A program made the position numbers and the translations under genes. The notes beneath the pieces were generated by a model. It saw only the letters and a program-made list of their open reading frames with translations, did no database searches and was not told the DNA's origin. Positions 6,862 through 61,253 of a stretch of DNA of 64,000 bases are shown here, one piece after another. Source of the stretch: a virus; IMG/VR virus record IMGVR_UViG_3300045988_125079, positions 79,838-143,837 of that record, one strand, 5' to 3'. Positions within the stretch are counted from its first letter, which is position 1; each line of letters begins with the position of its first letter.

Positions 6862-8190
6862 ATGAAATTTTATGACACTTCCGCCCTACTCGATCTCGGT
6901 GCTGCAGCATTCACAAGTCAGTTCTTGATTGCAGACATGACTTTGCACGAGTTAGAAGATATTAAAACAAGTGGTAAAAAGAACGAAGAAACTCGTTAGA
7001 AGGCACGTACCGTAACCCGCCTGCTTGCTGAACACCGCGACGATGGTAGCTTCCGAGTAGTAGCCGTTCCCATGTCTTCCCTATTCTACATCTTGGATGG
7101 CAAGCCAATCAGTGACAATAATGACGCGACGATCATGGCAACCGCCTATTGGTATCTGGATGAGCTGTGTCACAATTTGAATGACGCGATTGAAGCCGGT
7201 CTCACAGACGCACAGCGACAGATCCAAGCTGATATCGATTCTTTTAAATTTGTCACCAGCGACTTAAGTTGTGCCAATATCGCCAGCGGTATTCTTGATC
7301 TACCGACTGAGTTCACTTTTCCTAACGCAACAGCTGCGAAAAACGACTATAAAGGATGGATAGAGGTCGCCCTAGAAGATGGCGGCGAAGAAGCGTTGGC
7401 TATGGCCTACTCTAAAGATGTCGAGCAGAAGAACTTGTTTGATACGCCCACTAACGGTTATGTCTTAATCCCAAATGCAGACGCTGATGGTAACACGGCT
7501 GGACTTCGCTGGGATGGCTCGCGCTATGTACCTATTAAGTATAAAAAAATCAGCAACCGCTTCACTGGGGACATTCGCCCTCTCAACAATCAGCAGAAAC
7601 TCGCCTTTGATATGCTGCAGAACGACAACATCACCGTCAAGATGCTTGCTGGAACATTCGGCAGTGGTAAAACGATGCTCATGGTGTCATCCGCTATTGA
7701 TATGATCGAGAAACATAAAATTGACAAACTGATCTGGATTCGCAACAACATCGAAGTCAAGAACACAAAAGAACTGGGAGCACTTCCCGGCACTCTACTA
7801 GAGAAGCTAGGAGCGGCCTCATTTGCTGGACCTCTTGCAGACCATTTGGGCGGAGAAAGCGGTTTGGAGTATTGGATCAAGAATGGGCAAGTAGAGGTGG
7901 CGCATCTCGGCTTCATTCGTGGGCGCGACTATAAGAATGCTATCTTGCTAGTATCAGAAGCAGAGAACTTGACAAAAGAACACATCCAGTTGCTGCTCGG
8001 CCGTGTAGGTGAAGGATCTATGCTGTGGCTTGACGGCGACTTGAAGCAGACGGATGAGGCGGTATTTGAAAATAACAGTGGTATGCGCAAGGCAATCTCT
8101 GCTTTGACTGGAAATCCGCACTTTGCTTATGTGTACATGCCGAAGACAGAACGCAGCGAGACCGCACAGCTTGCCGATCTACTCGATTGA
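6862..8190 (+). CDS. phoH: PIN-domain/PhoH-like ATPase (442 aa, one in-frame TAG at 6997)
   Basis: The N-terminal MKFYDTSALLDL... PIN-like segment continues in frame through the TAG into track ORF 7072..8190. Walker A GTFGSGKT and the PhoH-type FIRGRD...SEAENLT motif are present. TGA stop. Confidence 0.8.
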
Positions 8191-8203
8191 GGCGTCGCGC
8201 AAG

Positions 8204-8638
8204 ATGATAGAAGTAAAAATAAGCGGCCTGAAAGTAGCGGACTACTGGTCTCCTACCGACGGATGGAACTATGACGCCATTGATAGTCTTGCAAAAGAAT
8301 TGTACGACCGCTACCGAGAAGCCGAAGCCGAACAGACAGTGGAGTTATTCAAGAACTACATAGAAAAAATGAGTATACTACATGAAATCGATCCATTCTC
8401 TATTGACTATATCCGCGATCAGATTGAGTGGATGATTCGTCCTTTGATGCATCGTGGAATGACGATGAAAAAACGGTTGCAGATAAACGCATTGACCTAT
8501 GAGATCGTAGAAAAGTTGCTTCCCTCTTATCTTGATAATATGGCTATGCTACATCAGTTACAAAAAGAATTAGAAAATGCGGCTTTGCATCGATATTTGA
8601 TTACGCCATTTGGCAAAAGGACAGCTGTATGGAAATAA
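8204..8638 (+). CDS. hypothetical protein (144 aa)
   Basis: ATG at 8204, just after the phoH stop. The earlier track start overlaps phoH. Confidence 0.5.
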   Translation: MIEVKISGLKVADYWSPTDGWNYDAIDSLAKELYDRYREAEAEQTVELFKNYIEKMSILHEIDPFSIDYIRDQIEWMIRPLMHRGMTMKKRLQINALTYEIVEKLLPSYLDNMAMLHQLQKELENAALHRYLITPFGKRTAVWK

Positions 8639-8934
8639 TGAATGAAGCTAATTTGAATATGTTCTGGGCGATTGATGAGTATTTGACTTATAAGATGTCG
8701 CGATACTTTAATGCGTATATTCTTCTGATTGGTTTAAAAGACGATTCTGGTTTCTTTATGAATTTTGAAGGTGGCAAAGGTGGAGTCGAAGGTCATTTAT
8801 ATAAAGAAAAAGGTCCAGCGGTATTCGCATTTATTGGCGACAATTACAAGATTCTACGAAATGACGATGCAAAGTAGATTGTAGATTTAGCATTAAAACT
8901 ATGCAGTCAATACGAAGATCAATTATTTAATTGA
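8629..8934 (+). CDS. hypothetical protein (101 aa, in-frame TAG at 8875)
   Basis: The frame stays open past the TAG for 18 codons and ends at TGA immediately before the AGGAGG SD of the next gene. Confidence 0.55.
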
Positions 8935-8953
8935 ATAGGAGGTTCCACAGGGT

Positions 8954-9427
8954 ATGTATAAAATATTCGCTCCACGCGGCGGTGGCCGCACCTATCAAAT
9001 ATGTAAATACGCGATTGAAAACGACTGCGACATTATTGTGCCCGCTCTGAATTCTATCCAACACATTATAACGATCATAATGCAAATCTGCTATGATTCT
9101 AATGGTGAATATGAATATATTGATGACAATAACAATTTGCGTGATATCAAAATTAAAACACCAAACGACACGATTGTGATCCACGTTTTTGACGCTGATA
9201 GTTTCCGACATGCACAATTTGGCCCCGCCAGAAGAAAACCCGTGGTGATCGACGATATTGATGAATGTATGAAGCGTATTATAAATTCCGACTTGATTGA
9301 AGCTATTTCTATAGCTACATATGACCCATCTGATGTCGCACTTCATCCTAAAATCACAGATGCAGATGATCCAGCTATAGGAAGACCGGCACTGCAACCG
9401 CAACTGACCTGTAGGAGTTTACTATGA
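8954..9427 (+). CDS. hypothetical protein, CxSLL-tail family member 1 (157 aa)
   Basis: AGGAGG SD. Possible degenerate P-loop (APRGGGRT) and VVIDDID. C-terminus is TCRSLL. ATGA overlap with the next gene. Confidence 0.6.
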   Translation: MYKIFAPRGGGRTYQICKYAIENDCDIIVPALNSIQHIITIIMQICYDSNGEYEYIDDNNNLRDIKIKTPNDTIVIHVFDADSFRHAQFGPARRKPVVIDDIDECMKRIINSDLIEAISIATYDPSDVALHPKITDADDPAIGRPALQPQLTCRSLL

Positions 9428-10210: not shown

Positions 10211-10483
10211 ATGACACGAGAAGAAACTATAAAGTTAGTTGCTGAGAGCATATTTAGCGATCCAAGTATTAAGGCAACTCAACGGCAAGATGATCTTATT
10301 AAAGTAATAACATGTATGGCTGTGAATGGTGTTGACCATGTTTTGTATAAAGATAAAAAATATAGACTTGATTGCGACGCAGGTTGGTTATTGTCTGACT
10401 TTATTATAAACGATTTTTATACATATCCGAAACCAATATACATAAATAAACAGCAGCCGCTAATTTGCAGGAGTTTATTATGA
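10211..10483 (+). CDS. hypothetical protein, CxSLL-tail family member 4 (90 aa)
   Basis: ATG at 10211 follows GGGGAAGGAA; the track start at 10166 lacks an SD. C-terminus is LICRSLL. Confidence 0.5.
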   Translation: MTREETIKLVAESIFSDPSIKATQRQDDLIKVITCMAVNGVDHVLYKDKKYRLDCDAGWLLSDFIINDFYTYPKPIYINKQQPLICRSLL

Positions 10484-11238
10484 ATAGAATTGATTTTCAA
10501 AATGGATCGTAGATTCAAACGATAGAAACCAATCACGACGAATCTCAGGATGAAGTAATTAATGTTTGGTCTGCAGATGGCAAACCAGTTAGAATCTGTC
10601 GTGAAAGCAATCCGAGCATTCAAGTGGTAAAACAATGTGCTGCAGATTATATAAAAAGATGGGCTGAAGTAAAACATTCAATTTCGACAATGCCTGAAGT
10701 ATCAGACAAGTTTGACTATGAGTTTTATAACTACTCCCCTTCTCCGACTATTAATACGATTGATTTATTTAATCGAGAATATGAAATGATAGTAAATGCA
10801 GAACGACAATCACATAAAGAAGAGGACGATATGAGAATTTTATTTGTAAGTCCAGAAAAATACGATGCCGTATGTTCTTGGTATGATAATTTAGACACTG
10901 TACAAAAACACCGTAAAGTAATCGTAATATGCAAATCGCCGGACGAATTCCGTGAAAAGTTTGACTATAGTAAAATGAATGCACAGTGTACTATGTTCTA
11001 CTTTGATGAATATCTTGGATTGGCTAAGTCGTTTGAATATTGCAAATTATTTACTAAGTTGTATGGAGAAGCTGATGTTAGATACATCTGTGGAAATAAA
11101 ATGCGACAGATAAATATAGATGATTTAATGTGCCGCAATACATTTGATTGGTTTAAAGAGTTTTCTGTCGTGCCAGAATGCTTGGAAGATCTTATTCGAA
11201 ATAGTAAGAGAGCCTTCGTTTGTAAGAGTCTATTATGA
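10480..11238 (+). CDS. hypothetical protein, CxSLL-tail family member 5 (252 aa, in-frame TAG at 10510)
   Basis: The ATGA-coupled ATG at 10480 is in frame with track ORF 10624..11238 through a single TAG. C-terminus is FVCKSLL. Confidence 0.6.
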
Positions 11239-12315: not shown

Positions 12316-14859
12316 TTGTTTAGTCCACCATTATATAGCGTACTAAAATTTAACTTGAATTATATCGTTTCTCATAACTATAATTTTAAACTGACACCAG
12401 AAGAGATGGAGCAGTATAAAGTCTTGCAGGGTGACGATATGCTGTTCAGACAGATTCGGCTCATTTCCGACGACTAGAATAAATTCCAGCGCTTTATTAT
12501 CTTTGTTGATGCAACAGGCGGCCAAAACCACCCTGATGCTATCGATCATTTAGTAGAGCATGGATTCAAATTTAATGGTCAAAAATATCTGTTCTGTGAA
12601 CGTAGTGCAAGTATGGTTCGTCAGAGTATGTTGAGTTTTGTTGAGCGACATATCTACCCTGAACTCGATCGCCGTGTAAGCATGGAACTGGATTTTTCTG
12701 AGACACCAACTGTCCTGAGCAAGTATTATGCATATCGTGGTTTGATGCTGAGCAGCTGCCACTGTCTGGAGAACTGGTATCCCAAAATGATTGTTGTTCC
12801 AGATTATATGACAACGATCAAGAATCAGTGGATCGAGTACCTGGTAGACAAAACTGTGACGTTTAATGACCGCAAAACAGGCAAAGAACGTACCTGGACC
12901 CAGAAAGATATCGCCACAAAAACAGTTGACATTGATATCAACGCCTTTGATGGTGCTGGAATATGCCACCCAAGTATCATGCGCGAATTTGAAAAGCGTA
13001 TCGGTACTTCTGAACGGATGAATAGCTTGATTCTACGTGCTCCATATATCAAGGGTTGCTTACACGAGATTGATTACGAGCGTTTTTTTGAAGAGAACGG
13101 CGTTACAAAAATCAAGGATATCTGGGGTATGGAATATGATGTAACACCTGGCAGTGAACCAATGATTATTATTACTGCTTCAATGTACAAGGGTCTCAAA
13201 TATTTCAAGAAAACTGGTACCTATTCTGACTGGGAGAGATACTGGGAACTCTTCAAGAAGTACGATAACTGCCTTGGTGTAGCCAAATGGAACTTTACGC
13301 TTGAACAAGAACCGCTTTCCACCCGTAGCAACTATCAGGTTATTCAAGACCTACAGCTTGACAATGAGTCTTTTAAGCATCTAGCCGACGACAGCATTAC
13401 CTGGTATCAGAATATTGTCAAAGGCGACCCGATTTATACATACTGCTTCCTTGGTTTACTTGCCGAGAACAATGACCCGATGAATCATTACATGGCTGCT
13501 GCCCTGCGTAATCCAGTGATGGTAAAAGAGCCGGCAATCAAAGATTATATTCACTCGCTGCTTGATAAATATCGCAATGAGATGAAGTGCGGTCGGCTTT
13601 GGATGAATGCTACTTTTAAGTTCTGGGCTCCTGACCTTATCGCACTATTGCAGCATATTGGTGGCCTTCCTGTGACTGGCTGCCTTGAAGACGGTGAGTT
13701 CTACAGTTTCGATCGTCGTGGTGTGATGGAAGGAGACCGCTTAATTGAGCGCAATCCCCATATCTCTGTTGCTGAGCATGTAAAGGCCAAGGCCGTAGAC
13801 AACGAATACACCCATAAATACTGCAGCCATCTTCAGAATGTTGCTATGGTGAATATCAAATCCATCGTGGCTTCCAGACTTAATGGTTCAGATTTTGACG
13901 GCGACCTGGTTTTAATCATCGACAATCCGCTGATGATGAGTGGTGTTCCTGATAATATCCCCATTACACTTGATGTTGAAGATAAGATCACTGCGTTAGC
14001 AGAATGTGATATTGTGAAGAACAAAGTTGCTTGCACCATTCGTGGATTGAAAAGTTCTATTGGTGAGATCTCAAACTACGCAACTGCATACCATAATAAG
14101 GTTCCGACCATGGAAAAGACCAAAAAGCTCTATCACGATAATATTTCGCTTTTGAGTATCTGCAACGGAAAAGCTATCGATTATGCCAAAACCGGTGTTC
14201 TGTATCCGATCCCGCGTAATGTAGCAGCTTATGGTCGTCCTCTACCCTACTTTATGAAGTATGCAGGTCCTTACTACGCACGTTTACATAATCTCAGCAA
14301 GGCACATAGCAACATGAACCTGCTTTGCATGAGTCTGGAGCGTTGGGAGCGCGGTGTACGGTGGCGCAAAGAGCCGGCAGGCAGCTTTGATTGGCATATC
14401 ATGTACGACCCAGAGGTCTCCTATGACCAGGCAGTCTTTGATGAGATCGAAGCCATTTTCTTGGATTTCAACAAATGCCGCAAGGAACAGCTTGAGTTCG
14501 AAAAGAAATGCCGCAACTGGCAATTATATCATAAGGACATCGAGTCGCGTATTACCAAAGAAGAAGCCAAGACATATGAAACGAACTGGCAGGCGATCTA
14601 CAATGTCTACCGTAACAAGTGCAAGCTGGTGTGTCCTGATGTGAGAGAGCTGGCGAATATTCTTGTAGTGCTTTGCTATGAGAAGTATCCAAATAAATTT
14701 AAGAAGTTCTTGTGGCACATGGCCGGCGCTGGTGTGGTCGAAAATATCAAGCCGGTTCTTGTTCAGTTACCAGTTCACGACCCGAACGGTGAGTATGAAT
14801 ATCTTGGCCAGCGATATAGTTTGGCTGAACCGAAAACTTATGAAGCGAGGGTGAAATAA
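12316..14859 (+). CDS. YonO/RdRP-like single-subunit two-barrel RNA polymerase (847 aa, in-frame TAG at 12475)
   Basis: TTG start 9 nt after GAGGAG, in frame through the TAG with track ORF 12613..14859. GSDFDGD (13891-13905) is the DxDGD metal-binding signature. ERNPHISVAEHV and ERSASMVRQS resemble cellular-RdRP/YonO family blocks. Confidence 0.7.
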
Positions 14860-15709: not shown

Positions 15710-15862
15710 ATGAATATGGCCGCGTTAATTGCATATTGGAGAGCTAGACCATTTTCGTTCATAGAAAAGTATTTTCATCTTCGTCTATATTGGTATCAAA
15801 AATTATATTTACGAATGATCTATGATAGGAGGTTAAATGGCATATACAACTTTCTACTGTAA
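15710..15862 (+). CDS. possible small ORF (50 aa)
   Basis: ATG 10 nt after AAGGAGG. Overlaps the next gene by 26 nt. Below the track cutoff. Confidence 0.3.
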   Translation: MNMAALIAYWRARPFSFIEKYFHLRLYWYQKLYLRMIYDRRLNGIYNFLL

Positions 15863-16649
15863 TGAAAATATGTTGCTTGATCATTGGCAGGACTATCACG
15901 AGTCAAATCTGATGTTGCGAAACCTGCTAAAGCGAACCTCCCTCTCCCCTATTGAATGCGCCACGTTTTATTATGAGCGGATGAAAAATCCTGAGTCTGT
16001 CAGTTATGATCGCAGCCACTTGATTCAGATGTTCAGCAGAGGTCGTAAAAATAACGCGCCTATATTTGACGTACATCAAGTTGTACTTTATCAGAAAGAT
16101 CTGGACTATATTACAGAGGCGCGCCGAAAATATCATATCAACTACGCACAATTACGTGTTCTGTTTGGGGTGATATTCTTCTGCCGACTATACGGAAGTG
16201 ATACCTTTGCTTTGGACACCGAGTTTAAGATGAAACGTTTTGGTGGCTGTTTTGAAGAGCAGACAGAGATCATGTATTGCGCTGGGAAGAACTAGGATGA
16301 CGGCTATAATACAGTGCGGGGTATGAAGGAAATTTCTGACGACTATCATCTGCTGAACAGGACAGGTACTGACGACATTGGATGCTTATACCAGTACCAG
16401 AATTTCGCTCTTGATAAGAATGACACGATTGCGTACACGTTTAATGTGACGCTTGAAAACAATCGACTGAATCTAAGTGCCATAGTGCGAGAGTTGTTTG
16501 ACCCGAAGGAATGTTATTGCATCGTGTGTGGCGAACAGTATCACTCAGAAAAGCCAAATGCCAGCAGATATTGCAAAGGGTGTGCGGCAAAAAAAGAACA
16601 AGCACGTCTGGCGAAAATCAAGCGAAAACGCAGCAAATGCACGAAATGA
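15837..16649 (+). CDS. hypothetical protein with C-terminal zinc ribbon (270 aa, in-frame TAG at 16293)
   Basis: Track ORFs 15837..16295 and 16314..16649 share one frame and are joined by the TAG. AGGAGG SD. CIVCGE...CKGC motif. Confidence 0.65.
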
Positions 16650-16934: not shown

Positions 16935-18134
16935 ATGGACGAATTTAAAAAGAATGCTTTTCGTAAGATGGATGATGAATCTTTCGATGAATATATGATG
17001 CGGATTGGTAGCGCGTGCCATGAGCACAATTTGACATAGGATGAAGCTGCCGAGATTCTGAATGATGCAACAGGTTCTAACTATGGTGAATGTCGCTATC
17101 GTAAGACCTATAAAGCATGGAAGGCTGGCTACGACTATGCGCTTGAGCATGAATGCGGAGATGCCGTGGCTAATGATATCCAACGTCTGAAGATTGAACA
17201 GGTAAAAGCCCGCGATGAACGTGCAGCAGCTAACAGAGTGTACCGCAATATGGCCAGAACGGAGTCTATTAAAGATCTGATTGCTGCTGCGGTAGTTCCT
17301 TATGACAAGAATAATTTTCTAAATGTCGTACAATATGAATGCAGTGATCATGATGTGATTGTGTGTCTGTCTGACTTGCACACTGGATCTGGTATTGATA
17401 CTGCATGGAATAAGTTCGATAAAGAAATTCTTAAGTCGCGACTTGAATCCTACATTGCACAGATTTATAACATCGTAGCTCGTCATGCCGCCGAAAAGAT
17501 TCATGTACTATTGCTTGGTGATCTGATCAATGGCCATATCCATATGAATACCCGTATACAAAACAACGAGAACAGTATTGAACAAGTCATGATTGCAGCG
17601 GAGCTTGTGAGTAATTTTGTGGCTGAATTATATAAAGTGTGCAGTCATATCGATGTGTATGCGGTGAGTGGCAATCATTCGCGTGTATTTCCAAATAAGG
17701 ATGAACAGGTTGCAGGAGATGAACTCGAAGCGCTGATTCCGTTCTATATGAAGGCACGGCTACAGAATCTGGCTGGCATTGAAGTAAAAACAGAGAAGCT
17801 CGATCCTACGTTTGGCGGATTTAAGGCTCGTAATAGTTTAGTGATGTATGCACATGGAGATAAAGACTCCCCTGCTAACGTCGTTGAACACTTGACCATG
17901 ATGGTAAAACAGCCGATTGATCTGGTCTTCCTCGGACATCGCCATACAAACGGAATGACAACCGTGCACGGTACAAAGGTTATTGAAAGTGGCTGCGTAT
18001 GTGGCACTGATAGTTTCGCGGTTGGGCTTCGTAAAAATGATGTTCCGCAGCAGGCCGTTGCCGTGATTGATGATGGCGGTCTGGAGTGTTTGTATGATGT
18101 CAAGCTGGAGAAGCCAGCAAAGATAGTAATTTAA
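16935..18134 (+). CDS. metallophosphoesterase (calcineurin-like) with N-terminal HTH-like segment (399 aa, in-frame TAG at 17037)
   Basis: ATG at 16935 is in frame through the TAG with track ORF 17166..18134. Phosphoesterase motifs present: LSDLHTG, GDLINGH, GNHSR, GHRHT. Confidence 0.7.
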
Positions 18135-18549: not shown

Positions 18550-18810
18550 ATGGAAGAAAAATTTCACAAAGATTTAGGAGGCGATTACTTCTACTGTTAT
18601 TCCCGCCGTTGTGCATTCTTTATTCGTGCAATGGGAATTTTCTATGAAGAGATTGGCGAGCATCCAACTACGGGCTCTGTATATACAAAGTTCCACAAAA
18701 CAAAAAAGCTCAATGAAATCTTAAAGCTGTGGGATGATATCAAGTATCGCTTTGACAATATGTCAGATGACGGAACGGTGGTGAAGGACTATGGCCAGAA
18801 CTGCCATTGA
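18550..18810 (+). CDS. hypothetical protein (86 aa)
   Basis: AAAGGAGG SD and a TGA stop. Confidence 0.55.
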   Translation: MEEKFHKDLGGDYFYCYSRRCAFFIRAMGIFYEEIGEHPTTGSVYTKFHKTKKLNEILKLWDDIKYRFDNMSDDGTVVKDYGQNCH

Positions 18811-19789
18811 AAAGAAACCGCCACGCATTAAAGTGCCAGCCTCATGGAGTGGTGGCAAATGTATGTGCTGCGGAAAAATCTATGATGTGCGTAAGGGAAA
18901 TTTCTCGAAAACACAGAGTCAATGGTTTATAGGCAATGATGGATATCTGCCGTGGTGCAACGAGTGCCGCGAACGCATGTTTGAATTCTACGCCAAGAAA
19001 TACAATGACGAGGATGAAGCGATCGACCGTCTGGCTATGATGTTTGATACCTATGTTGATGATAAGCTGTTGGAGGCTTCTGAGCATTCTACCACATCCG
19101 CTTTGAAGATCAACACTTACATGGGACGGCTCAATATGCGTCAGCACGCTGGTAAATCCTATGACGATGTAATCGATCAGAAGAAAAAGGACGCACTTGC
19201 TGCCGGCGATACCAAGGGAACAAAAGTCACTCAGAGAATGATCAAGAATTAGGGGCGTGGCTTGGATGATCAAGATTATCTATTCCTTGAAGACCACTAC
19301 CAGAATCTTATTACACGCCATGAATGCAAGACAGCCGCACAGGAGATTCTGTTTAAGCGCATTGCAAAGGCAGAGCTTAACTGCGAAAAGGCCGATGCGA
19401 CTGGTGACACAAAGAAAATCAAGGAAGCCAATGATAACCTACAGAATCTAATGGGTTCAGCTCAGATCAAGCCGAACCAGACGAATGATAATGCACTGGC
19501 TGAGACGAATACTTTTGGCACGCTAATTCAGAAATAGGAAGAGGAAGAGCCGATTCCAGAACCGTCGCCCGAGTGGCAAGACGTTGATAATATTGGTAAG
19601 TATTTTAGAGTATGGGTGCTGGGCACTTTGCTTAAGATGTTCAACTTAAAGAATCCATATCAAGACGAATTTGATGAAGAGTTTGAACGATATACTGCTC
19701 ATAAACCAGAAACAAATGAGGATGATACCGCAGATACCAGCCTCCGCGAAACTATTTTTGGTATTGGCGAAGGCGGTGGTTCCGCATGA
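18791..19789 (+). CDS. terS: putative small terminase subunit (332 aa, in-frame TAGs at 19250 and 19535)
   Basis: Three same-frame pieces are joined by TAG. It lies immediately upstream of terL and overlaps it (ATGA). N-terminal zinc ribbon CMCCG...CNEC. Confidence 0.5.
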
Positions 19790-20276
19790 GTAAAGAGAAA
19801 TTAACAGATAAGGAAGTAGCGAATACAAAATCAGAAAAGATAATGAACGCAGTAGCTTTAAGAGCGTCTTTTTATCGAGCGAATCCTCAGCGGTTTGCAA
19901 AAGATTATTTAAACCTGACATTGAAACCATTCCAAGAGCTGCTATTGTTTTTGATGGTGAGATGCACAGGTTTCTGCTAGGTCGCCGCACGCGGGTTGGG
20001 CAAGTCCTTTTTGACAGCAGTTTTTTGCGTTATCACATGTATTTTGTGGCCTGGTTCCAAAGTCTGTATTGCGTGTAAAGTGCGAAGTCAGTCCATTAGT
20101 ATTTTGGACGAAAAAATAATGAAAGAAATCTATCCGAACAGCCCACTATTAAGAGCTGAGATAAAAAAAGTAGATATCAATAATCAAAAAGCAGAAATAA
20201 TATTTAGAAACGGTAGCTACATCAAAGTCGTTACTGCAACAGACTCATCACGAGGTTCGCGTGCGACTTTATTGGT
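19786..20276 (+). CDS. terL: terminase large subunit, exon 1 (in-frame TAG at 19978)
   Basis: Walker A AARGLGKSF. Ends ...SRGSRATLLV just before the expected Walker B DE. The downstream frame degenerates into intron sequence. Confidence 0.75.
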
Positions 20277-21327
20277 AAACAAACATGCCAGATTTTATAG
20301 AAACATAAAACCTAGACTGGGCAAAATCGGTAAATGCTAAAAATTTATTTGAAGGAAGGAATAATTATAGCTAAGGTAAATCCGCGAAAGAGAACGAAAG
20401 AACAATTCCAATATCTACTAGATGAGAAATTTGGACCAATTTATGAAGTCACTGGAGAGTACGTTGATAGCCAGACAAAAGTCGGGTTACTTTGCAAGGT
20501 GTGTGGAAATATATTTTATAAAGTACCTAATAAAATGACTTCCTGTGGCGAGGGCTGCTATTTTTGTAGTAAGAAAAATTGGCACAAAACAACCGAAAGC
20601 TTTCAAAAAGAGTTAGACAATAGATTCCCAAACACATACGAAGTTTTGACTGAATATGTAAAAGCACGGAAACCTCTTTTGGTGAAACGGATTCCATGTG
20701 GACATATTTATAAAGTATCACCTGATAATTTGTTGCGTGGAAAAGGTTGCGCTTTATGTACAATACGTCAATCTCATTATATGGATATCGTTGAAGACTA
20801 TTTTAAGAAACACAATATTATTTTTGAAAAAGAAAAAAGATTTGACGATTGCCGTAATATTCGTGTTTTACCTTTCGATTATTATATTCCAGATAAGAAT
20901 TTATGTATCGAGGTCGATGGTGAATTTCATTATCCACATGTCACATACGAAAAAAGTGATTAGACACTCAAAGGTGCTTCCCAGTAGGAGGCAGTCCATG
21001 AGCGTGATTTAATTAAAACCGCATACTGTGAACAAAATGGAATTGATTTACTACGACTTCCATATTTTGAAGAGAAAAATTTTGAAAAAATTCTTGATGA
21101 TAAATTCAATGCTAATACCGAGATAAATGAAGAAATTTCGCAAGGTTCTTCATCATTGTAACGCATAGGAGATGAATAAATATAATTCTCCCACGAGTGT
21201 CCAGCACAACAGTATATAGGACTGTTCGCAGAAATGCGCCTAACGTTAAACGAGGGTGAAAATATATGCTGACCTTACAGGAAACTGTAAGAATCGTTGG
21301 ATAAAAAGCCGACGAGTTAACATATTG
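20277..21327 (+). mobile_element. group I intron in terL (~1051 nt)
   Basis: Removing it joins ATLLV to CDEYRLLSKDVID, restoring the Walker B motif in one frame (491+1267 nt = 586 codons). P1 is UUGGU(20272-20276)/GCCAG(20287-20291) with a U-G wobble at the splice site. P10 is ACAU(20283-20286)/GUGU(21328-21331). The last intron nt, 21327, is G. A GAAA-capped hairpin sits at 21274-21291. Confidence 0.7.
20334..21161 (+). CDS. intron-encoded nuclease: tandem zinc-ribbon repeats plus PD-(D/E)XK (Vsr/DUF559-like) C-terminal domain (in-frame TAGs at 20961 and 20985)
   Basis: Two CxxC...GxGCxxC repeats, then FDYYIP...CIEVDGEFHY...ERD..K...GIDLLRLPY. The start codon is uncertain. Confidence 0.55.
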
Positions 21328-38808: not shown

Positions 38809-38919
38809 CTCGTAACAATACTATAGGTTCACTATGGGGTGCTCCAAATCAGCTGTCGCAAGATAGCAAAAATTACAGGCGGTCTCTCCCCTGCTGTCAA
38901 AAGTGGAGAAATATTTTTG

Positions 38920-38948
38920 TTGACTATCTTAGTATTTCTGGCTATAAT
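38920..38948 (+). promoter_or_regulatory. consensus sigma70 promoter (TTGACT-17-TATAAT)
   Basis: Exact hexamers with a 17-nt spacer, 55 nt upstream of the ATG at 39003. Confidence 0.75.
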
Positions 38949-39002
38949 AAAAATATCAAAAACAATACACAAGCAAAACGTATGTAGTGGAGGTATTTTA
39001 TT

Positions 39003-40220: not shown

Positions 40221-40235
40221 TATATTACTACGCAG

Positions 40236-40580: not shown

Positions 40581-40689
40581 AATTGATTTCTCCGTAAAGA
40601 ATTAGAAATTCGAATTACAGTTTTTGCAATGCCATTGTTTTCCGATTTTCCCGCTGGCAGCGCCCACGAGAGATACAGACACTGTGCGG

Positions 40690-41598: not shown

Positions 41599-41613
41599 GA
41601 TTTTTCCTCGATA

Positions 41614-42293: not shown

Positions 42294-42322
42294 ATTATAC
42301 GATATGACAGTCAATAAGTCAA
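42294..42322 (-). promoter_or_regulatory. consensus sigma70 promoter (TTGACT-17-TATAAT) reading leftward into the island
   Basis: On the minus strand, TTGACT is at 42322-42317 and TATAAT at 42299-42294. The -35 hexamer lies inside tape-measure exon 2. Confidence 0.7.
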
Positions 42323-51248: not shown

Positions 51249-52874
51249 GTGATGTTTTTGTATACTCCTACTTCAAAAGAATTGCGCCTCTTAAAAACAC
51301 ATACCAAAGAATTGCACTGCAAGTTAGAGTTGTTAGATAAAAATTTAAACGTGATCGATTCTCTTGAGGGTATTGCCATTGATGGTTCATTATCTATAGA
51401 TGCAAACTCTGACATCAGAAGAACTTTTTCAGGTACTATTCATTTAAATCCAAGAAAAAGAATAAGCAGATATGAGATCAACGAATAGACGGATAAGATG
51501 GTACGAGTATATATAGGCATGAGTGTAAATAAAGCAAATATTTATTGGTATCCTCAAGGCGTATTTGCTTTTAGTCAAAATGGATTTACGTATAGTTCTT
51601 CTGAGCATACTGTTTCTATTTCGTGTGTAGATCTCGTTGCGTTACTTGATGGAACTCTCGGAGGAACACTTACTGGTTACAAGACAACAATAAGTATTGG
51701 TACAAACATTCGTTCTGCGATTGAGGATACTTATAAATTAAGTGGTATGACTGATTGTTCTATTGACTATTAGAATCGTAAAGTTCCAAACGATATTGAT
51801 TTTCAAACGGGAACAACGATTTGGTCTATTCTAACACAGTTGCGCGATTTGTATTATCCATTTGAGATGTTTTTTAACAACACTACTTTTGTATGTCAAG
51901 AAATTCCGTCTGGTTTTGATGACCCTATCGCTCTAAAAAACGATACTTTCCAAGATCTTGTTATTTCAGAAGATTGTACAATAGATTATAGCGAAGTAAA
52001 GAATTGTGTTGAATTGTTTGGCGCGAGTATTGAGTACGATCAATTTGTCTCAGATGATAAAATGGAAACTTCAAACGAAGAGGATACGACTAACATTACA
52101 CTTAATACTGTAGACCTTGAAACAAATAATGACGTGCTAATTGCATTCACAACTCCCCTCCCTGGTCTAACCAAGCGTATCAATATTACGATTGTCAATT
52201 CAATGACCGAGACTGATGATGACAACAACACAAGTGTAAAGAAATATTGGCATGGTCCTTATACTTTATATGAAAGTGACGTTGACGAAAATGGACTTGA
52301 TGTTGCTATTGATGGAACTACTATTCCATGTGATACGATGGTAGTTGTAAAATATAGTCCATCGAATAAAGCTTTCTATTATCGTGGAGAACAACAAATT
52401 CATACCATGGTGAAGCTTGTAGATAAATATCCTACCGATGATGAAATCGAGCTGGATAAAAAAGAGGAATCTTGCAATTATATTAAATATATTTGTTTAA
52501 CAAATTCCGAATCTAAATCTTTAACTGATGTAGATTCATATTTTACCATCGATAAAATCGGAAGACGAAATCTTGTTTGTTCTGGAAGTGATTATGAAAT
52601 TTACAATACCAGCGCTTCAGCATTACAATGCACAGAGTATGAGCATTAGAAAGCTTGTCGTTTAACTGATAGTGTAAGTGTCGAATGTCTCCTTGTTCCA
52701 TGGCTGGATGTTAATCAAAAGATATCTTATATTCCCAAATATATAAATTCAAATGATGAAGAACTGGAATTCATCATAAAACAAATTAATATTTCTTTGG
52801 GTTCAGGAACGATGAGTTTAACACTAAGCAGGTATTATCCGTATTATCCATATATTGTCGAAAATAAATATTAA
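51249..52874 (+). CDS. tail-associated/baseplate hub-like structural protein (in-frame TAGs at 51486, 51771, 52647)
   Basis: Four same-frame pieces are joined only by TAG. The start is ambiguous (GTG 51249, ATG 51252, TTG 51258) after GGGAGG. Confidence 0.6.
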
Positions 52875-52908
52875 ATACTTTCGTCTATAACAATAGGAGG
52901 TGACTTCA

Positions 52909-53700
52909 TTGAGTTACGAAAAAAATCCAGATGGTACATATGTAGATTTGGAATTCACATCATTTCCCGCTCAAATAGATAGTTAGCAAAACAGCGAAAA
53001 TGTAAGCTCAGAGTTGCTATCGGATGTAAACGATTATAAAAAAGCAATTCAAAATGGAAATTATGCGCTTGCACAAAGTATTTTAGAAGCGAACCCAAAG
53101 ATCAAGAACACAATTATCGATGCAACCGATATCAATGAGCTGAAACATAGCACAATGGCACTGGAACGAATGTTCAAAGAAGACATTGAATTGTATATTG
53201 AGAGTTTTACAAACAAAGCAAGTGATTTTTCAGCAAAAGCTGCAACGTCTGCTAATAATGCGGCATTATCGGAAAGCAATTCAAAAGAAATTCAAAAAGA
53301 TCTCACAGCTCGATATGATAATATTCAGGCTACTCTTGATACTGCTAATCAGCTTTCTACTGAAGCAAAAGATAGCGCAAAAAGGGCTGAAGCATCCGTA
53401 AAATACGTCCAGCAGTATGTTGGTGGTTATTATAATTCGTACACTTTTGAGATTTCACCTGAAAATTAGGGAACATCTTCTTTTGAAAGTTTTAAGTATC
53501 AGTACGTAGCTTCTTGTGATGCCGCTACAGAAGATAGAATTCCGATGGCGTCAGTTTATCCCGAAAATATGGATGTTGCTACAGCGGCTGGCGTATGTCG
53601 TACATGTCTAACTGGTGATAAAACTATTACTTTCTATTCCAAAGAAATTCCAGCTAATACAATTAAGATTCAAGTGACGTTGTTTAGCAAAACAGCTTAA
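52909..53700 (+). CDS. baseplate upper/fibre-anchor-like protein (263 aa, in-frame TAGs at 52984 and 53467)
   Basis: TTG start after AGGAGGTG. Three same-frame pieces. The C-terminal ..ISPEN-TAG-GTSSFESFKYQYV.. resembles a conserved fibre domain. Confidence 0.55.
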
Positions 53701-53987: not shown

Positions 53988-54632
53988 ATGTATACATTTT
54001 TAATTAACGAGGACAACACGTTAACTGCTAGTGTTGTTGAACGCATCATGCAAAGAAGTAAACTTGTTGATAATCTTCATTTTTTGGCTGACACGACCTA
54101 TAAAGGAATCGATATGTCCAACTACACTGTAATGCTAGAATACGTTCTACCTGTAAGTAAAAATTATAAAACTGAGATTCTACAAAAATCTGCAGAACTG
54201 TACAAGAATAAGTTAGAATAGGTTCTTCCTTTTGATACAGAGTTAACAAGTGAAGTTGGTGATATTGAGATTCAGCTTACCTTTGCAAACACAGAAATGG
54301 ACTCCGAAGGCAGAATCACACAATATGTTCGCAAGGTTGGACCAGGTGTGATTCACGTTGTTTCTATCAATAACTGGTCTGATATGATTCCTGATTCGGC
54401 ACTTAGCTCTTTAGATCAACGACTTCTGGTGATGATTAGTCAGACGAAGGCTTTAAATGACCAAATGAATACTGTCATCAACAACAAAGCAGATGGACTC
54501 AGTTACAAGAATAGTGTTTTACGACTTCTTTCTCAAGGTAATCCGATTGGTAATGCAGTAAAGTTGTCTAGCGATTCTTCGGGAGATTCTTCTGGTGGAC
54601 AAGATGGAACTATCCGGGTGGTTGAATTCTAA
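53988..54632 (+). CDS. tail-module protein (214 aa, in-frame TAG at 54219)
   Basis: Track ORFs 53988..54221 and 54297..54632 share one frame with no other stop between them. Confidence 0.55.
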
Positions 54633-56123: not shown

Positions 56124-56196
56124 TTAAACTTACATTACCTGCCATGTCAATTTTGATGTGGCAGGCTTATTTTTTTATATCGAAAAGGAGTATACG

Positions 56197-57378
56197 ATGT
56201 CAAAGTTATCGTTATTAGAGATAGCACAGTCTCAACTCGACACGACTCCAGTGGTTGATGGACAATTGATTGTCTGCCTTGACACCGGAAACGCCTATCG
56301 AGACAATTCTGTAGCTCATGTAAAAATCGGCAACGATTTAGAGGTTGTGAGTGAACTTCCTTTGGCTCCTCTCGCCGAAAAACTTTATTACTTAAAGCCG
56401 GATAAACTGTATTTAAACCTCGGCGGCAACTAGGTTTTATTAAATGAGCGTTCTGTTATTCAAGATAATCTCACTTCAGATAGTTCAACAAATTCTTTGA
56501 GTGCAAAACAAGGCAAGGTATTAAAGAATTTGATTGACAAGAAACCAGACGAAATGAAGCTCTACCCAATCACGATTCCTGCAGAAGGATGGAAATCCGA
56601 TGGTTCGATATCGTATCCATATTATATCGATCTTCAAATTTCTGGTATTAAGGAATCCGATTGTATTGCAGTTACGATTTCACCAGAAGATATTGACGTT
56701 GCTAAAGCAGCTTATTTTACAACAACAGAAGCAAAAAATAATGTACTAAGACTTCGTGCAAAATATACTCCCCAAAAAGAAATTAGTGCTTTTTATTATT
56801 TTGTACGTGAAGATGTCGTGAAAGCTTTCGGGTTAGAAACTTTAAATGTAAATCCTTATACTCTTCCACCTGCAACAAAGAGTGAACTTGGCGGTGTGAT
56901 TGTTGGCAATGGTTTATCTATAACTAATGCAGGCCGTTTATCTGTTTCGTTTACTTATAAAGATATTATGCTATTAGCGTATCCTGTCGGAAGTGCATTC
57001 TTTACTATCAAGGATGATAACCCAGCGGAGCTATTTGGCGGTACGTAGAAAAAAATTGCAGAAAATAGAGCTATCATGGGAGCATCTGGTACCCATGCAG
57101 CAGGCAGCACAATGGAAGCCGGTCTGCCAGATCTTAATTTAGATTTATTGTATCGGCAAGATGCAACTTCATCTGGTTCGTATGATAGTAAATATGGTCA
57201 TGACGGTATGACTGTATCATGGAGTAATACGAGTGGAACGGACGAGTATATGCAAAGTATAAGTAACAGCTATACTAACGCTCCATTAGGATTGGAAATC
57301 GGAAATCCTATCTATGGACGCAGCAGTACCGTGCAGCCACCAGCTTATTATATGAACATTTGGCTTCGTACAGCTTAA
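56197..57378 (+). CDS. tail fibre/receptor-binding protein (393 aa, in-frame TAGs at 56431 and 57046)
   Basis: ATG at 56197 after AAAGGAG. LPPATKSELGGVIVG fibre repeat. The C-terminal AYPVGS...ELFGGT-TAG-KKI...GRSSTVQPPAYYMNIWLRTA domain is present. Confidence 0.65.
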
Positions 57379-58393: not shown

Positions 58394-58921
58394 ATGAGTA
58401 TTTATGAATTATGTAAAAGCGTAATTGCTTCTGGTAAAACAAACGGGTTGACTGAAAAGCTCGATACTTTTTATTTGGCGGGCAAATTGACAAAAGACGA
58501 GTATACAGAGCTCACAGAGAGTAACCCTGAAAACACATTGGAACTAAGTAAGAACAAAAAGGTCGAAAAATCTAAAACCGCGCTCGCTACATATCTTGCC
58601 GAGCATCCGTTGCAGTAGGTTGATGGCAAGTATTATAGCGTAACAAGTGAAAAACAAACTCTTCTTACTTCCAATCTAGCTCTGTACCAACTTGCCGTCG
58701 CAAGTAATCAGCCTTTTGTCTTAAAATGGAACACTACTGGTGATGAATGTACCGAGTGGACCTATGAAAATCTGGCCGCACTGGCTCTTGCAATCGGAAC
58801 TTATGTGCAGCCTTTTGTATCTCGGCAGCAGGAACTTGAGCTTGCTATTAAAGCATGTAAGTCACTGGAACAGGTCAACGCTGTTAATATTACGTATGAT
58901 GATGTCGGTCAGGTGAGTTAA
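58394..58921 (+). CDS. fibre-associated protein (175 aa, in-frame TAG at 58616)
   Basis: The frame continues 100 codons past the TAG to a TAA 3 nt before the next ATG. Confidence 0.55.
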
Positions 58922-58924: not shown

Positions 58925-59350
58925 ATGTCGATTCGACAAAAAGAATACTTAAAATGCGCCATTCTCTGGTTGATCGGAGGGGTGCTTTATTATTGCATCG
59001 AGATTTTATGGCGAGGTCATTCACACTGGACAATGGCTGTTGTAGGTGGTACTTGCTTTGTGGTCATCGGAGGCTTGAACAATTATATTCCATGGGAAAT
59101 GGCGTTGCATAATCAGGCAGTTATTGGCGCATTGTTCGTAACTGCAATGGAACTTGTCGTGGGTATCCCGCTGAACTTGATGCTGGGGTTACACATTTGG
59201 GACTACTCTTCCCTGCCCTTCAATCTGCTAGGTCAAATCTGCCTGCCATTTACAGTGCTATAGTTCTTTTTAGCTTTATTATGCATTTTCATCGATGACT
59301 GGTTAAGGTACATTCTTTTCAAGGAAGAACGTCCACACTATCACTGGTAA
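58925..59350 (+). CDS. polytopic membrane protein (141 aa, in-frame TAG at 59261)
   Basis: Hydrophobic helices continue across the TAG (..PFTVL-TAG-FFLALLCIF..). A terminator follows. Confidence 0.55.
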
Positions 59351-59488: not shown

Positions 59489-59971
59489 ATGGAAGAGATT
59501 CTTGATTTTTGTTTAAATCATCTTGGATCTGTTATGGCTGGTAGTAGTGGTTTGATTGTCGCAGTTATGTCTATTATTCAAGTATCGAAAATCGAAATCA
59601 ATCCGTAGTCTTGGATAGCCACCCAATTGGGTAACGCTCTTAACGCTGGTGTAATGAAAGAAATTAAAGATATCAAAACAGAACAGGAAGAAACTAGAAA
59701 GAAGCTTGACGCACACATTGAAGAAGGTGAAGAACGTAAAGCGGATAATTATCGTAGCCGTGTTCTTCGTTTCAATAATGAGCTTGTCAGAGGACTTGGA
59801 CATACTGAAGAGGACTACGATGAGATTCTTGATGTTATTTGGAAATACAATGAATATTGTAAAACGCACCCCAAGTATAAAAATAATAAGATGCCACATG
59901 CCATCAAGAATGTGGAGCGTATGTACGATGAAATGCTGCACACGAATGGATTCTTAAAAACAGAAGAATAA
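59489..59971 (+). CDS. membrane-anchored lysis-region protein (160 aa, in-frame TAG at 59606)
   Basis: ATG after GAGGTGATG. N-terminal TM helix, then ..KIEINP-TAG-SWIATQLG.. in frame with track ORF 59627..59971. Confidence 0.55.
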
Positions 59972-60036
59972 ACACATGAATCGTTGACCCGGTTGGCTTA
60001 GTGCCACCGGGTCTTTTATTTATCAGGAGGTATATT

Positions 60037-60357
60037 ATGATGGATTATATGAATCAGATTATTTCTGTTGTTGTCAAACTGGTTATCACTGGTGCAGGCA
60101 CTGCTTTTATCGCCTATGGGATTCCTTACCTGAAGCAGATCGGTATGTATAAGATTGTCCAGATGGCTGTCCGTGCAGCTGAAAAGCTTGGCCTTACTGG
60201 AGCGATCAAGAAAGCCGATAAGAAGAAGTACGTTATTACTATTCTGGAGAAGATGGGTGTAAAGGTAACTCCTGTTATTGAGATGATGATTGAAGCTGCC
60301 GTTAAAGAGCTGGACATTCAGAACGAAAAAATTGAAACCGAACTCAAGAAGGATTGA
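60037..60357 (+). CDS. holin-like small membrane protein (106 aa)
   Basis: ATG after AGGAGG. One N-terminal TM helix plus a charged C-terminus. Lies immediately upstream of the endolysin. Confidence 0.55.
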   Translation: MMDYMNQIISVVVKLVITGAGTAFIAYGIPYLKQIGMYKIVQMAVRAAEKLGLTGAIKKADKKKYVITILEKMGVKVTPVIEMMIEAAVKELDIQNEKIETELKKD

Positions 60358-60369
60358 AGGTGTGGCTCT

Positions 60370-61017
60370 ATGAGCATTATTACATATTCTATGAAGAAGG
60401 ACTGGAATAAAAAGCTGTCCAAGAACTTCTGCGCCTATGAGTTTGCTTGCAATGACCGGAGCGACGAATTCAAGGTGGCAACTGAGCTGGTGGAAACTCT
60501 GCAGCAGATTCGTGACCACTTTGGAAAGCCGGTTCTGATTAGTTCTGCCTACCGTACTCCTGCATATAACATTTCAATCGGTGGCAGTTCTCGCAGTCAG
60601 CATTGTCTGGGCACGGCAGCGGATATTCACATCGCTGGTATTGATCCAATTCGTATTGCACTATACGTAGCCTCCCTCCCCTACTTCCAGAAACATGGCG
60701 GTATTGGCTATTATAGTCGTGCACAAGTGACGGGCGGCTTTGTTCATGTCGATGTACGTGAGACTCCTAGCCGTTGGATCAGTAAAAGTGGCACAGCATA
60801 TCAGGTCGTGAGTAAAATCATGCCTACGATTCGTCAGGGCTCTAAGGATTGCACTAGTGGCGTGTCTTATGCTGTGACCGTATTGCAGCGGCATTTAGGC
60901 TTGAAGGCAGATGGCGTCTTTGGCGCTGGCACAAAAGCTAAGCTAGTGGAATGGCAGAAAGCACATGGATTGGCGGCTGACGGCATCTGCGGAATGGCAA
61001 CATGGGGTTCGTTTTAA
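60370..61017 (+). CDS. endolysin: M15-type peptidase domain plus C-terminal peptidoglycan-binding repeat (215 aa)
   Basis: SAYRTP..N...GGS..SQH..G.AADI and HVD metal-site pattern. C-terminal LQRHLGLKADGVFGAGT...GLAADGICG (PG_binding_1-like). Confidence 0.7.
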   Translation: MSIITYSMKKDWNKKLSKNFCAYEFACNDRSDEFKVATELVETLQQIRDHFGKPVLISSAYRTPAYNISIGGSSRSQHCLGTAADIHIAGIDPIRIALYVASLPYFQKHGGIGYYSRAQVTGGFVHVDVRETPSRWISKSGTAYQVVSKIMPTIRQGSKDCTSGVSYAVTVLQRHLGLKADGVFGAGTKAKLVEWQKAHGLAADGICGMATWGSF

Positions 61018-61253
61018 TGGCAAGTAACCAGAACACATTGCGTGCAGGAGACAAAATTAAATTAGACGGAGTATTATTTTCAAACAGCCAGACTCACTGC
61101 GGTATGCGCCGCAGCGGTGAGTAGTTCATCTACGATGGGAAACTAGTCAATGGACGCTATCGAGTGACAAATCTTGAAAGCCGAATTGGCAAGTATCCAA
61201 TTTCGATAAATGTGTCGGGTTATGTCGAACCGAGCGATATTGAACTAGTATAA
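61017..61253 (+). CDS. small SH3-like protein (78 aa, in-frame TAG at 61122)
   Basis: TAATG-coupled start. The frame stays open through the TAG to a TAA just before the terminator. Confidence 0.45.

Follow-up and report, generated by a model that had tools for sequence, protein, structure and literature searches.

Among code-divergent phages, Borges et al. observed only two reassignments, TAG to glutamine (Gln, Q) and TGA to tryptophan (Trp, W); phAss-1 and the crAss-like phages read TAG as Gln. Kienbeck et al. (2024) scored 19.4% of 180 amber suppressor transfer RNAs (tRNA-Sup) associated with theta ribozymes in gut phages as of the Trp isotype with a bacterial isotype model, which they related to the "rarely reported code 32", and concluded code 15 (TAG read as Gln). 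Except for this hint, our full-text literature search returned nothing on TAG or UAG read as Trp in phages. Here we analyzed a stretch of 64,000 nucleotides of viral DNA (IMG/VR record IMGVR_UViG_3300045988_125079, positions 79,838 to 143,837), hereafter called the window, in which genes on the plus strand contain many in-frame TAG codons. Our conclusion is that UAG is very probably a sense codon for Trp in this phage, used mainly in late genes and decoded by a phage tRNA with the anticodon CUA, tRNA(CUA), that derives from tRNA-Trp(CCA). To our knowledge, TAG is otherwise read as Trp only in the plastids of Balanophoraceae (NCBI table 32). The original prediction of this assignment, made by a model from the letters of the window, had named TAG to Gln and TGA to Trp as the known phage recodings; this agrees with Borges et al., but amber suppressors of the Trp isotype had already appeared in Kienbeck et al. 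(2024).

In-frame TAG codons and the residues found opposite them

The original prediction listed 29 in-frame TAGs. All 29 coordinates are TAG, each in the frame of an open reading frame (ORF) on the plus strand; the frame stays open across every one of them, and the merged ORFs, called with TAA and TGA as the sole stops, end at TAA or TGA. These ORFs start behind a Shine-Dalgarno-like sequence. Two more TAGs were found beyond that list, one near the end of the tape-measure gene (38634) and one in the ORF 38769-39335 (38985), for a total of 31 in 23 of the 57 plus-strand genes of our curated set (6285-61253). The same 57 genes contain 162 TGG codons, and TAG makes up 16% of their presumed Trp codons. 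Their terminators are TAA (39) and TGA (18), with TAG at 0/57, so the claim that no gene of the plus-strand backbone ends in TAG was borne out. The left arm of a relative, _137781, likewise has no TAG terminator among 53 ORFs. Two minus-strand genes in an island of the window (40236-40580 and 40690-41598) do end in TAG, and the statement therefore holds for the plus-strand backbone and not for the whole window.

After an in-frame TAG, the frame remains open for a median of 109 codons, and for at least 50 codons at 25 of the 31 sites; after the terminal TAA or TGA, the open frame has a median of 9 codons. Relatives at 70-99% protein identity align through the TAGs, with conservation on both sides. 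UAG is read through and translated in these genes.

Which residue is inserted was addressed from the codons of relatives. Under ordinary code 15, TAG would be read as Gln by a glutaminylated tRNA(CUA), as in crAss-like, Lak and phAss-type phages, and public gene callers already give Q at these TAGs. The window proteins, with TAG written as X, were compared with all fetched loci (about 300) by tblastn, and the codon under each X was read; identical sequence contexts were collapsed and columns were weighted equally, and a column was taken as informative when it had at least three informative relatives (n = 20). The deduplicated codons under the window's TAGs, which still come from phylogenetically non-independent relatives, were TGG 305, TAG 144, TAT 66, TTC 42, CAG 21, TAC 12 and CAA 6. 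The leading residue over the informative columns was W in 15, tyrosine (Tyr, Y) in 3, phenylalanine (Phe, F) in 1 and Q in 1, and the summed column-mean BLOSUM62 scores in half-bits were 154.8 for W, 48.9 for Y, 26.1 for F and -32.1 for Q. The columns thus aligned with Trp, with 154.8 against 48.9 for the runner-up, as in a code 32-type assignment, and not with Gln, which led in 1/20 as opposed to 15/20 for W. The single column that leans to Q, at 28552 with CAG or CAA 28 times, is what code 15 can claim here. Fourteen relatives without tRNA(CUA) had TGG 73, TAT 12, TTC 9 and CAG plus CAA 2 at the same columns.

The reciprocal comparison, from codons of the window to TAG in relatives, gave the same contrast. 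Window TGG stood opposite TAG in 232 of 5244 cases (4.4%), TAG being the commonest replacement of TGG, and window CAG and CAA stood opposite TAG in 4/9344 and 1/4954. After deduplication the figures were 142/4021 (3.5%) for TGG, 5/8018 for CAG and 1/5257 for CAA. Exchange of TAG with CAG or CAA was thus 0.02-0.06%, compared with 3.5-4.4% for TGG, and TAG replaces TGG about 60-100 times more often than CAG or CAA. Because TAG-CAG and TAG-TGG are both single transitions, mutation bias cannot explain this gap. By these comparisons, TAG can be exchanged for TGG but not for CAG or CAA, and W is conserved at these positions.

Database homologues were then considered at the columns of two genes. The YonJ-like column 17037 had W 72, Y 8 and Q 20 among 120 homologues down to 38% identity, and the YonG-like columns had W 27 with F 15, and W 37, among homologues below 70% identity. 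The deep standard-code homologues have W at the YonJ and YonG columns, never Q. The 20-30 Q residues in these alignments were confined to close relatives, and in the protein P0001 the codon under the stored Q is TAG (L551 1103-1105), and translation of the gene does not give the protein on record; the source pipeline had taken code 15. The Q residues in the databases are, in other words, TAG codons. Two distant phages, Brevibacillus phage Sundance and Alicyclobacillus phage KKP_3916, have F, A or I at three columns other than 17037.

The prediction that TAG stands for Trp rather than Gln is accordingly strongly supported, by the codon columns, the reciprocal test, the deep homologues and the tRNA-Trp-like suppressor described below, and we regard Gln as very unlikely. 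The original prediction had further pointed to seven TAGs at which related families carry a conserved Trp. At six of these, relatives mainly have TGG as the alternative to TAG; at the seventh, 53467, no relative was informative.

A reading of TAG as Tyr or Phe, or as ambiguous among several residues, has the columns 6997, 12475 (tied with Asp) and 54219 on its side, which are led by Tyr codons, and 19978, which is led by Phe. Furthermore, TAT and TAC are one step from TAG, and rare Tyr- and Ile-isotype suppressors were included in Kienbeck et al. The score of W exceeds those of Y and F given above, and window TAT and TAC codons almost never become TAG in relatives (2/17201 and 0/6928). TAG also occupies the strictly conserved W columns 19250, 28878 and 17037. 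In addition, tRNA(CUA) has G73, as opposed to A73 in the tRNA-Tyr and tRNA-Phe of these phages. Such a reading is highly improbable. The assignment to Trp has a practical consequence for stored sequences. Gene callers and public collections treat every amber-recoded phage as code 15, and this clade is systematically mistranslated as glutamine in public databases, as verified on P0001. The proteins P0001, P0121 and about 50 other protein clusters are stored in public collections with TAG as Q. For this clade, Q would stand at about 1 in 6 Trp positions of the late proteins (verified on P0001), and such mistranslation corrupts alignments, structure predictions and search databases for mass spectrometry.

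A phage tRNA(CUA) and its link to TAG use

The search for a CUA tRNA beyond the window, which the original prediction had proposed, led to relatives, in which the gene was found about 45 kb left of the window start, with identity features like those of tRNA-Trp. The phages carry two tRNA arrays. The first, 10-16 kb left of the window, encodes Pro, transfer-messenger RNA (tmRNA), Met, three Leu and Gly, and no CUA. The second was reached by walking through relatives. There, 44 loci have tRNA(CUA), in every case flanked by tRNA-Lys(UUU) and tRNA-Ser(UGA). The same slot is occupied by tRNA-Trp(CCA) in 13 sister contigs and is empty in others. The three closest relatives of the window (L466, L467 and L468, 91-99% identical in late genes) carry tRNA(CUA), as do five contigs of the European Nucleotide Archive (ENA) whose neighbouring protein is identical to that of _137781 and several large metagenome contigs, one of 1.5 Mb. 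P0241, one of the proteins encoded beside the tRNA array, is on record on 364 contigs.

We joined loci by contig name and counted TAGs in the region equivalent to 7-28 kb of the window. Each of the 28 contigs that carry tRNA(CUA) showed 3-12 in-frame TAGs, and none of the 14 contigs without it uses TAG in frame (Fisher p = 1.9e-11, 42 contigs); the apparent stops in these 14 were TGA or TAA at gene ends and one stray TAG. A comparison of gene content between recoded and non-recoded relatives over window 7-28 kb gave no determinant.

The CUA tRNAs all share G1-U72, G73 and the loop CUCUAAA, which differs from the tRNA-Trp loop by the change of C35 to U. The tRNA-Trp(CCA) of the same phages has A1-U72 or G1-U72, G73 and the loop (C/U)UCCAAA, and their tRNA-Gln has U1-A72 (A1-U72 in 2/9) and the loop CUUUGAC; their tRNA-Tyr and tRNA-Phe have A73. 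Neither U1-A72 nor a Gln-type loop was found in the CUA tRNAs, and with its purine1-U72 and A38 loop tRNA(CUA) resembles tRNA-Trp and not the tRNA-Gln of these phages, which is a further point against code 15. The best match among 493 distinct tRNAs of the fetched loci was tRNA-Trp(CCA) for three of four CUA types (71-77% identity), and for two of these three it was the syntenic tRNA-Trp(CCA); before the syntenic genes were included, overall similarity had been indecisive for the first three CUA types. A joint alignment of CUA and CCA tRNAs keeps the cloverleaf, with 20 pairs, 15 of them with compensatory changes. C2-G71 is present in 9/9 aligned CUA types, and the CCA tRNAs have G2-C71 or G2-U71. 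To judge from the shared slot and the sequences, tRNA(CUA) most likely descends from tRNA-Trp(CCA).

Several observations concern other tRNA-like genes and the surroundings of the arrays. An element at 18426-18507 (+) in the window was considered as a suppressor and rejected: it scores 31.3 bits with the Rfam tRNA-Sec model, below gathering, and its loop is CUCAUAA (CAU). The element is degenerate, and some relatives (L021, L022 and L041) have an intact tRNA-Met(CAU) at this place. The long tRNAs of the first array (92-nt Met and 91-nt "Ile") were considered as misread CUA tRNAs, and their anticodons are not CUA; in L162 they are a 92-nt tRNA-Met(CAU) with a long variable arm (2128-2219) and a 91-nt "tRNA-Ile(UAU)" with a weak anticodon stem (2536-2626). 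The second position of the second array (e.g., L484 10827-10899) holds a tRNA-like gene with a UUU...AAA acceptor stem, for which ARAGORN gives the anticodon AUA, AUG or the two-base "AU". The phage tmRNA of the first array (L085 11629-12012, which lies about 11.5 kb to the left of where the window starts; Rfam 89.7 bits) encodes the tag peptide ANNNSYRCAA; it is also present in L086-L091 and L185-L189 but not in all relatives, and its presence does not follow recoding. Five independent Logan contigs (L557-L561) all stop about 555 bp past the p213 gene, at the start of the second array, which suggests that a repeat or variable region breaks assemblies there. No ribozyme of the hepatitis delta virus (HDV) type was found beside tRNA(CUA) by Rfam, in which theta ribozymes may not be represented.

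The TAGs might also be explained without reassignment by a tRNA, through adenosine-to-inosine editing (UAG to UIG, read as UGG), near-cognate read-through, G-to-A damage or pseudogenes. Editing would yield exactly the TGG-TAG equivalence observed, TGG to TAG is the commonest nonsense transition, and the window is without a tRNA. TAG use is, however, tied perfectly to the tRNA(CUA) gene in the 42 contigs. No motif or TadA-like context surrounds the 29 TAGs, which speaks against editing, and TAGs also fall in the terminase, tape-measure and fibre genes, which are essential. Since the same TAGs occur in dozens of diverged genomes with conserved sequence downstream, random damage is excluded. Only a very small chance is left to these explanations taken together. 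Least probable of all is that the host, and not the phage, has an altered code or supplies the suppressor: although tRNA(CUA) was not demonstrated on the window's own contig and some recoded phages are without suppressor tRNAs, the gene lies inside the phage array in every recoded relative and is absent from sister phages without in-frame TAG, minus-strand genes of the phage stop at TAG, and the exact suppressor pattern had no match in 185,579 representative genomes.

The assignment of UAG to Trp through tRNA(CUA) also has a number of points against it. ARAGORN found no tRNA within the window, and Rfam found none at gathering thresholds; that the window's own genome carries tRNA(CUA) is inferred from relatives, where the gene was seen, and not from its own contig (ERZ1304294 NODE_22). 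Five of the 20 informative columns are not led by W: three are led by Y (one tied with D) and one by F, and 28552 leans to Q. We infer the inserted residue to be Trp from substitution patterns, that is, from codons and not from peptides. For the CUA type A (e.g., L488), similarity to tRNA-Trp does not exceed that to tRNA-Lys or tRNA-Gln. No TAG occurs in the holin and endolysin genes, and a role in the timing of lysis is therefore not supported. No phage tryptophanyl-tRNA synthetase (TrpRS), release factor 2 (RF2) or RF1 antagonist was found in the Pfam-scanned ORFs and fetched loci, about 7 kb and many small ORFs being outside the scans. Finally, E. coli tRNA-Trp(CUA) loses recognition by TrpRS and is charged with Gln by glutaminyl-tRNA synthetase (GlnRS) (Yaniv et al. 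1974, as cited in later work), a finding that also favours code 15.

This last point concerns charging. The main elements by which E. coli TrpRS identifies its tRNA are G73 and the anticodon (Hughes & Ellington 2010). The CUA tRNAs keep G73 and purine1-U72 and lose C35, by TrpRS rules that are taken from E. coli and may not be those of the host. The E. coli suppressor su7 is charged by GlnRS because C35 is an identity element for TrpRS and U35 is one for GlnRS, so descent from tRNA-Trp alone is no proof of Trp insertion. The presumed charging of tRNA(CUA) with Trp by the host TrpRS is the weakest link of the explanation. The codon patterns argue that strictly conserved Trp positions accept the residue that is delivered, and that this residue is not interchangeable with Gln. 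We speculate that the fixed acceptor-stem changes keep or restore Trp identity.

Taken as a mechanism, a phage-borne tRNA-Trp(CCA) would have become tRNA(CUA) by the change of C35 to U and changes in the acceptor stem, and the gene would be part of the second array, some 45 kb leftward of the window. With tRNA(CUA) present, TGG-to-TAG transitions would be synonymous and would have accumulated to 16% of the late plus-strand Trp codons. Genes on the opposite strand (early genes, island and the AcrVA2-like end block) would avoid TAG and could still stop at it. The strand bias may reflect timing, in that full-length late proteins would be made only once the suppressor tRNA is available; the alternative is neutral drift.

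On a wider scale, it is probable that a widespread clade of Firmicutes phages of the human gut has reassigned UAG to Trp by an anticodon mutation of a phage tRNA-Trp, which would be the first well-supported case beyond the plastids of Balanophoraceae, and the first virus with such a code. As part of the same claim, held with the same confidence, the clade would contain the stages side by side: an empty slot and no TAG, tRNA-Trp(CCA) and no TAG, and tRNA(CUA) with few to many TGG-to-TAG changes. Closely related genomes that carry or lack the suppressor, and that differ by degrees in their TAG use, would make the order of events in codon reassignment directly testable.

Gene content, strand bias and genome ends

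The window is best explained as the late half of a temperate siphovirus of about 140-150 kb, similar to SPbeta and Sundance, with a host among gut Clostridia. By Pfam and synteny, the late genes run from PIN-PhoH through a YonO-like RNA polymerase, a YonJ-like metallophosphatase, a YonG-like gene and a split large terminase to the portal; YonD/YonB-like head genes, two giant tape-measure-like genes, tail fibres, holin and endolysin follow (Pfam, PHROGs and synteny). Genes of relatives match Pfam YonJ_N, YonG_N/C, YonD_N, YonB and RdRP, and the set and order of the late genes are those of SPbeta-like phages. The portal is 42% identical to that of Sundance, in which the gene order is the same. 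Among GenBank phages, the close matches were three short fragments only, all from human faeces. The window is 100% identical to parts of the ENA contig L082 (154.5 kb) and the Logan contig L079, and in IMG/VR relatives number in the hundreds, with contigs of 100-150 kb. The features are collected below.

Features of the window with their TAG codons (position of the first nucleotide) and the codons that relatives have under each TAG, with counts.
Feature	Coordinates	Strand	TAGs, codons in relatives and remarks
PIN-PhoH-like gene	6862..8190	+	TAG 6997: TAT/TAC 32, GCT 9, TTT 3; aromatic but variable; Pfam PhoH and PIN_4
Small gene	8629..8934	+	TAG 8875: TGG 11, TAG 2; TGG in 6/6 relatives without tRNA(CUA)
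Gene	10465..11238	+	TAG 10510: TAG 2, GAA 1; frame open; few relatives, column uninformative
YonO-like RNA polymerase	12316..14859	+	TAG 12475: TAG 15, TAC/TAT 15, GAC/GAT 15; variable; Pfam RdRP PF05183
Gene	15837..16649	+	TAG 16293: TAG 34, TGG 17; TGG in 14/14 relatives without tRNA(CUA)
YonJ-like metallophosphatase	16935..18134	+	TAG 17037: TAG 27, TGG 18; W in Alicyclobacillus phage KKP_3916
YonG-like gene	18791..19789	+	TAG 19250: TGG 43, TAG 3; TAG 19535: TGG 24, TAG 19
Large terminase, N-terminal part with Walker A	19786..20340	+	TAG 19978: TTC/TTT 46, TAG 3, TAT 2, TGG 1; F in Sundance, A in KKP_3916
Inserted endonuclease-like ORF	20334..21161	+	TAG 20961: TGG 2, TAG 1; TAG 20985: TAG 3; in about 5% of relatives
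Head-region gene	28195..28629	+	TAG 28552: CAG 21, TAT 12, CAA 7, TGG 1; sole Q-leaning column; variable
Gene	28641..29666	+	TAG 28878: TGG 34, TAG 1
Gene	30165..30968	+	TAG 30363: TGG 22, TAG 5; TAG 30678: TGG 21, TAT 15, TAG 1
Tape-measure gene	33408..38717	+	TAG 37596: TGG 9, TTC 5, TTT 1, GCA 1; F in Sundance
Tape-measure gene, second TAG	38634	+	27 further codons, then TAA
ORF	38769..39335	+	TAG 38985: frame open across; 0 relatives covering
Second giant tape-measure-like gene	42304..47418	+	TAG 46624: 1704-codon frame open across; outside the fetched loci
Tail/baseplate-region gene	51249..52874	+	TAG 51486: TAG 1; TAG 51771: TAG 1, TGG 1; TAG 52647: TGG 2, TAG 2; few relatives
Gene	52900..53700	+	TAG 52984: TAG 2, TGG 1; TAG 53467: TAG 3
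Gene	53988..54632	+	TAG 54219: TAT 7, TAG 2
Tail-fibre gene	56158..57378	+	TAG 56431: TGG 17, TAG 2, CTT 2; TAG 57046: TGG 11, TAG 3, ACA plus ACG 3; product of relatives matches Pfam Phage_fiber_rpt
Tail-fibre-associated gene	58394..58921	+	TAG 58616: TGG 19, TAG 4; PHROGs tail-fibre matches
Membrane-protein gene	58925..59350	+	TAG 59261: TGG 26, TAG 3
Gene	59489..59971	+	TAG 59606: TGG 8, TAG 4
Small gene	61002..61253	+	TAG 61122: TGG 21, TAG 2
Early-type block compatible with the standard code	187..5518	-	Nine ORFs; TGG present, no TAG; stops TAA/TGA
Island between the tape-measure-like genes	40236..42246	-	TAG is the terminator of 40236-40580 and 40690-41598, which would gain 18 and 24 codons if read through
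Prophage-end block including AcrVA2-like gene	61461..63710	-	17 TGG, 0 TAG; terminators TAA/TGA

TAG is unevenly distributed over the genome. Minus-strand genes of the window have TAG at 0 of 40 Trp codons (p = 9e-4 at the 16% rate), and in the left arm (57 kb) of _137781 TAG makes up at most 5.7% of Trp codons. The minus-strand genes are compatible with the standard code and, to judge from their position and strand only, would be of the early or lysogeny type. The bias fits the published idea of a separation between early or lysogenic and late genes (Borges et al.); it is explained equally well by a neutral build-up of synonymous TGG-to-TAG changes in the late genes. The island between the tape-measure-like genes (39517-42246) comprises one plus-strand and three minus-strand ORFs. 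Its genes had no Pfam or PHROGs matches except a weak PaaD zinc ribbon, and it may be a moron cassette whose genes are expressed with the standard code.

Beyond the right end of the window, ENA contigs identical or nearly identical to it (L081/L082 1-9300) continue with genes for a GDPD protein, a MalT/LuxR-type regulator and a Flg_new protein, which are absent from all viral relatives; circularly permuted viral contigs have a tyrosine integrase at that place instead (L122 8236-9462). These features indicate a prophage boundary just right of the window. The GDPD flank gene matches metagenome-assembled genomes of Faecalibacterium at 68-76% only and without synteny. From the host-like flank genes and the integrase of the permuted contigs, the phage is probably temperate, and its host is tentatively placed in Faecalibacterium or related Clostridia. 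An AcrVA2-like protein (Pfam) is encoded near this genome end, at 62259-63302 on the minus strand.

The 847-residue protein encoded at 12316-14859 matches Pfam RdRP (PF05183, E = 8e-17) and corresponds to the YonO-like single-subunit RNA polymerase of SPbeta; it heads the late block. The large terminase is apparently split into the Walker A-containing N-terminal ORF 19786-20340 and a remainder at 21368-22594, with the endonuclease-like ORF between them; this insert has a weak match to the DUF4379 zinc finger. At the terminase insert site, the relative L550 has a LAGLIDADG gene, and L549 has a GIY-YIG gene within its RNA polymerase gene, which suggests that the inserts in the terminase and RNA polymerase genes are mobile introns or homing endonucleases.

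The left arms of relatives (L156, L299, L416, L552 and L564) encode a reverse transcriptase beside a small integrase-family protein, a PemK toxin, PspA and an OmpA-domain protein. NAMPT and nicotinamidase for the salvage of nicotinamide adenine dinucleotide (NAD) and a tetrahydrofolate (THF) dehydrogenase/cyclohydrolase are found in the same arms, together with the replication genes for DnaB, primase and DNA Pol III alpha. Two ribozyme matches were noted. On the minus strand of the window (4639-4691), a RAGATH-5-like match comes near the threshold, at 47.4 bits where gathering requires 50; in a close relative, the left arm (L085 4352-4432) has a Type-P5 twister ribozyme that exceeds its threshold.

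Comparison with known recoded systems

Like the TAG-to-Gln phages of the gut (crAss-like, Lak, Garnet/Topaz and phAss-1; Borges et al.; Peters et al. 2022; Babkin et al. 2023), the phage analyzed here has amber codons in conserved, mostly late genes. Shared features are also a phage-encoded tRNA(CUA), a presumed standard-code host, early or lysogeny genes without in-frame stops, and related lineages that use the standard code. It differs from them in the residue, which would be Trp, in the suppressor, which would be derived from tRNA-Trp, in being an SPbeta-like siphovirus of Firmicutes, and in lysis genes that lack the recoded codon.

The code 4 phages Jade and Agate, in which TGA is read as Trp (Borges et al.), are alike in that a stop codon becomes Trp via a tRNA-Trp with one anticodon change, in gut Firmicutes and in large genomes. 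There, however, the codon is UGA (C34 to U), whereas here it is UAG (C35 to U), and UGA still serves as a stop, at 18 terminators. Unlike in Jade and Agate, no phage TrpRS or release factor was seen in the parts examined here. The plastids of Balanophoraceae have the same assignment (table 32), with TAG as Trp and TAA and TGA as stops. Their code is of independent origin and applies to the whole genome of a reduced, extremely AT-rich plant organelle, whereas the recoding described here would be virus-borne, dependent on a tRNA gene and strand-biased in a standard-code cell.

A molecular parallel to the suppressor is su7 (supU) of E. coli, in which tRNA-Trp became an amber suppressor by the same change of C35 to U (Yaniv et al. 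1974, as cited in later work). That tRNA is charged mainly with Gln by GlnRS, whereas the phage tRNA, with G1-U72 and C2-G71, appears to deliver Trp; these two pairs may preserve Trp identity or block other synthetases. If the assignment is true, Trp identity would be retained in this natural amber suppressor, in contrast to su7. Such a tRNA-Trp(CUA), occurring in nature, carrying consistent acceptor-stem changes and apparently remaining a Trp tRNA inside a bacterial cell, is a lead for Trp-specific amber suppression, and it bears on what decides between the Gln and Trp outcomes of phage recoding across hosts. The amber suppressor tRNAs of Kienbeck et al. (2024) are from gut phages too, and were assigned by isotype prediction only, without a codon-level test. 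Recoding of phages by suppressor tRNAs was thus already known, whereas the assignment, the ancestry of the tRNA and the intermediate states within one clade are new or had only been hinted at before.

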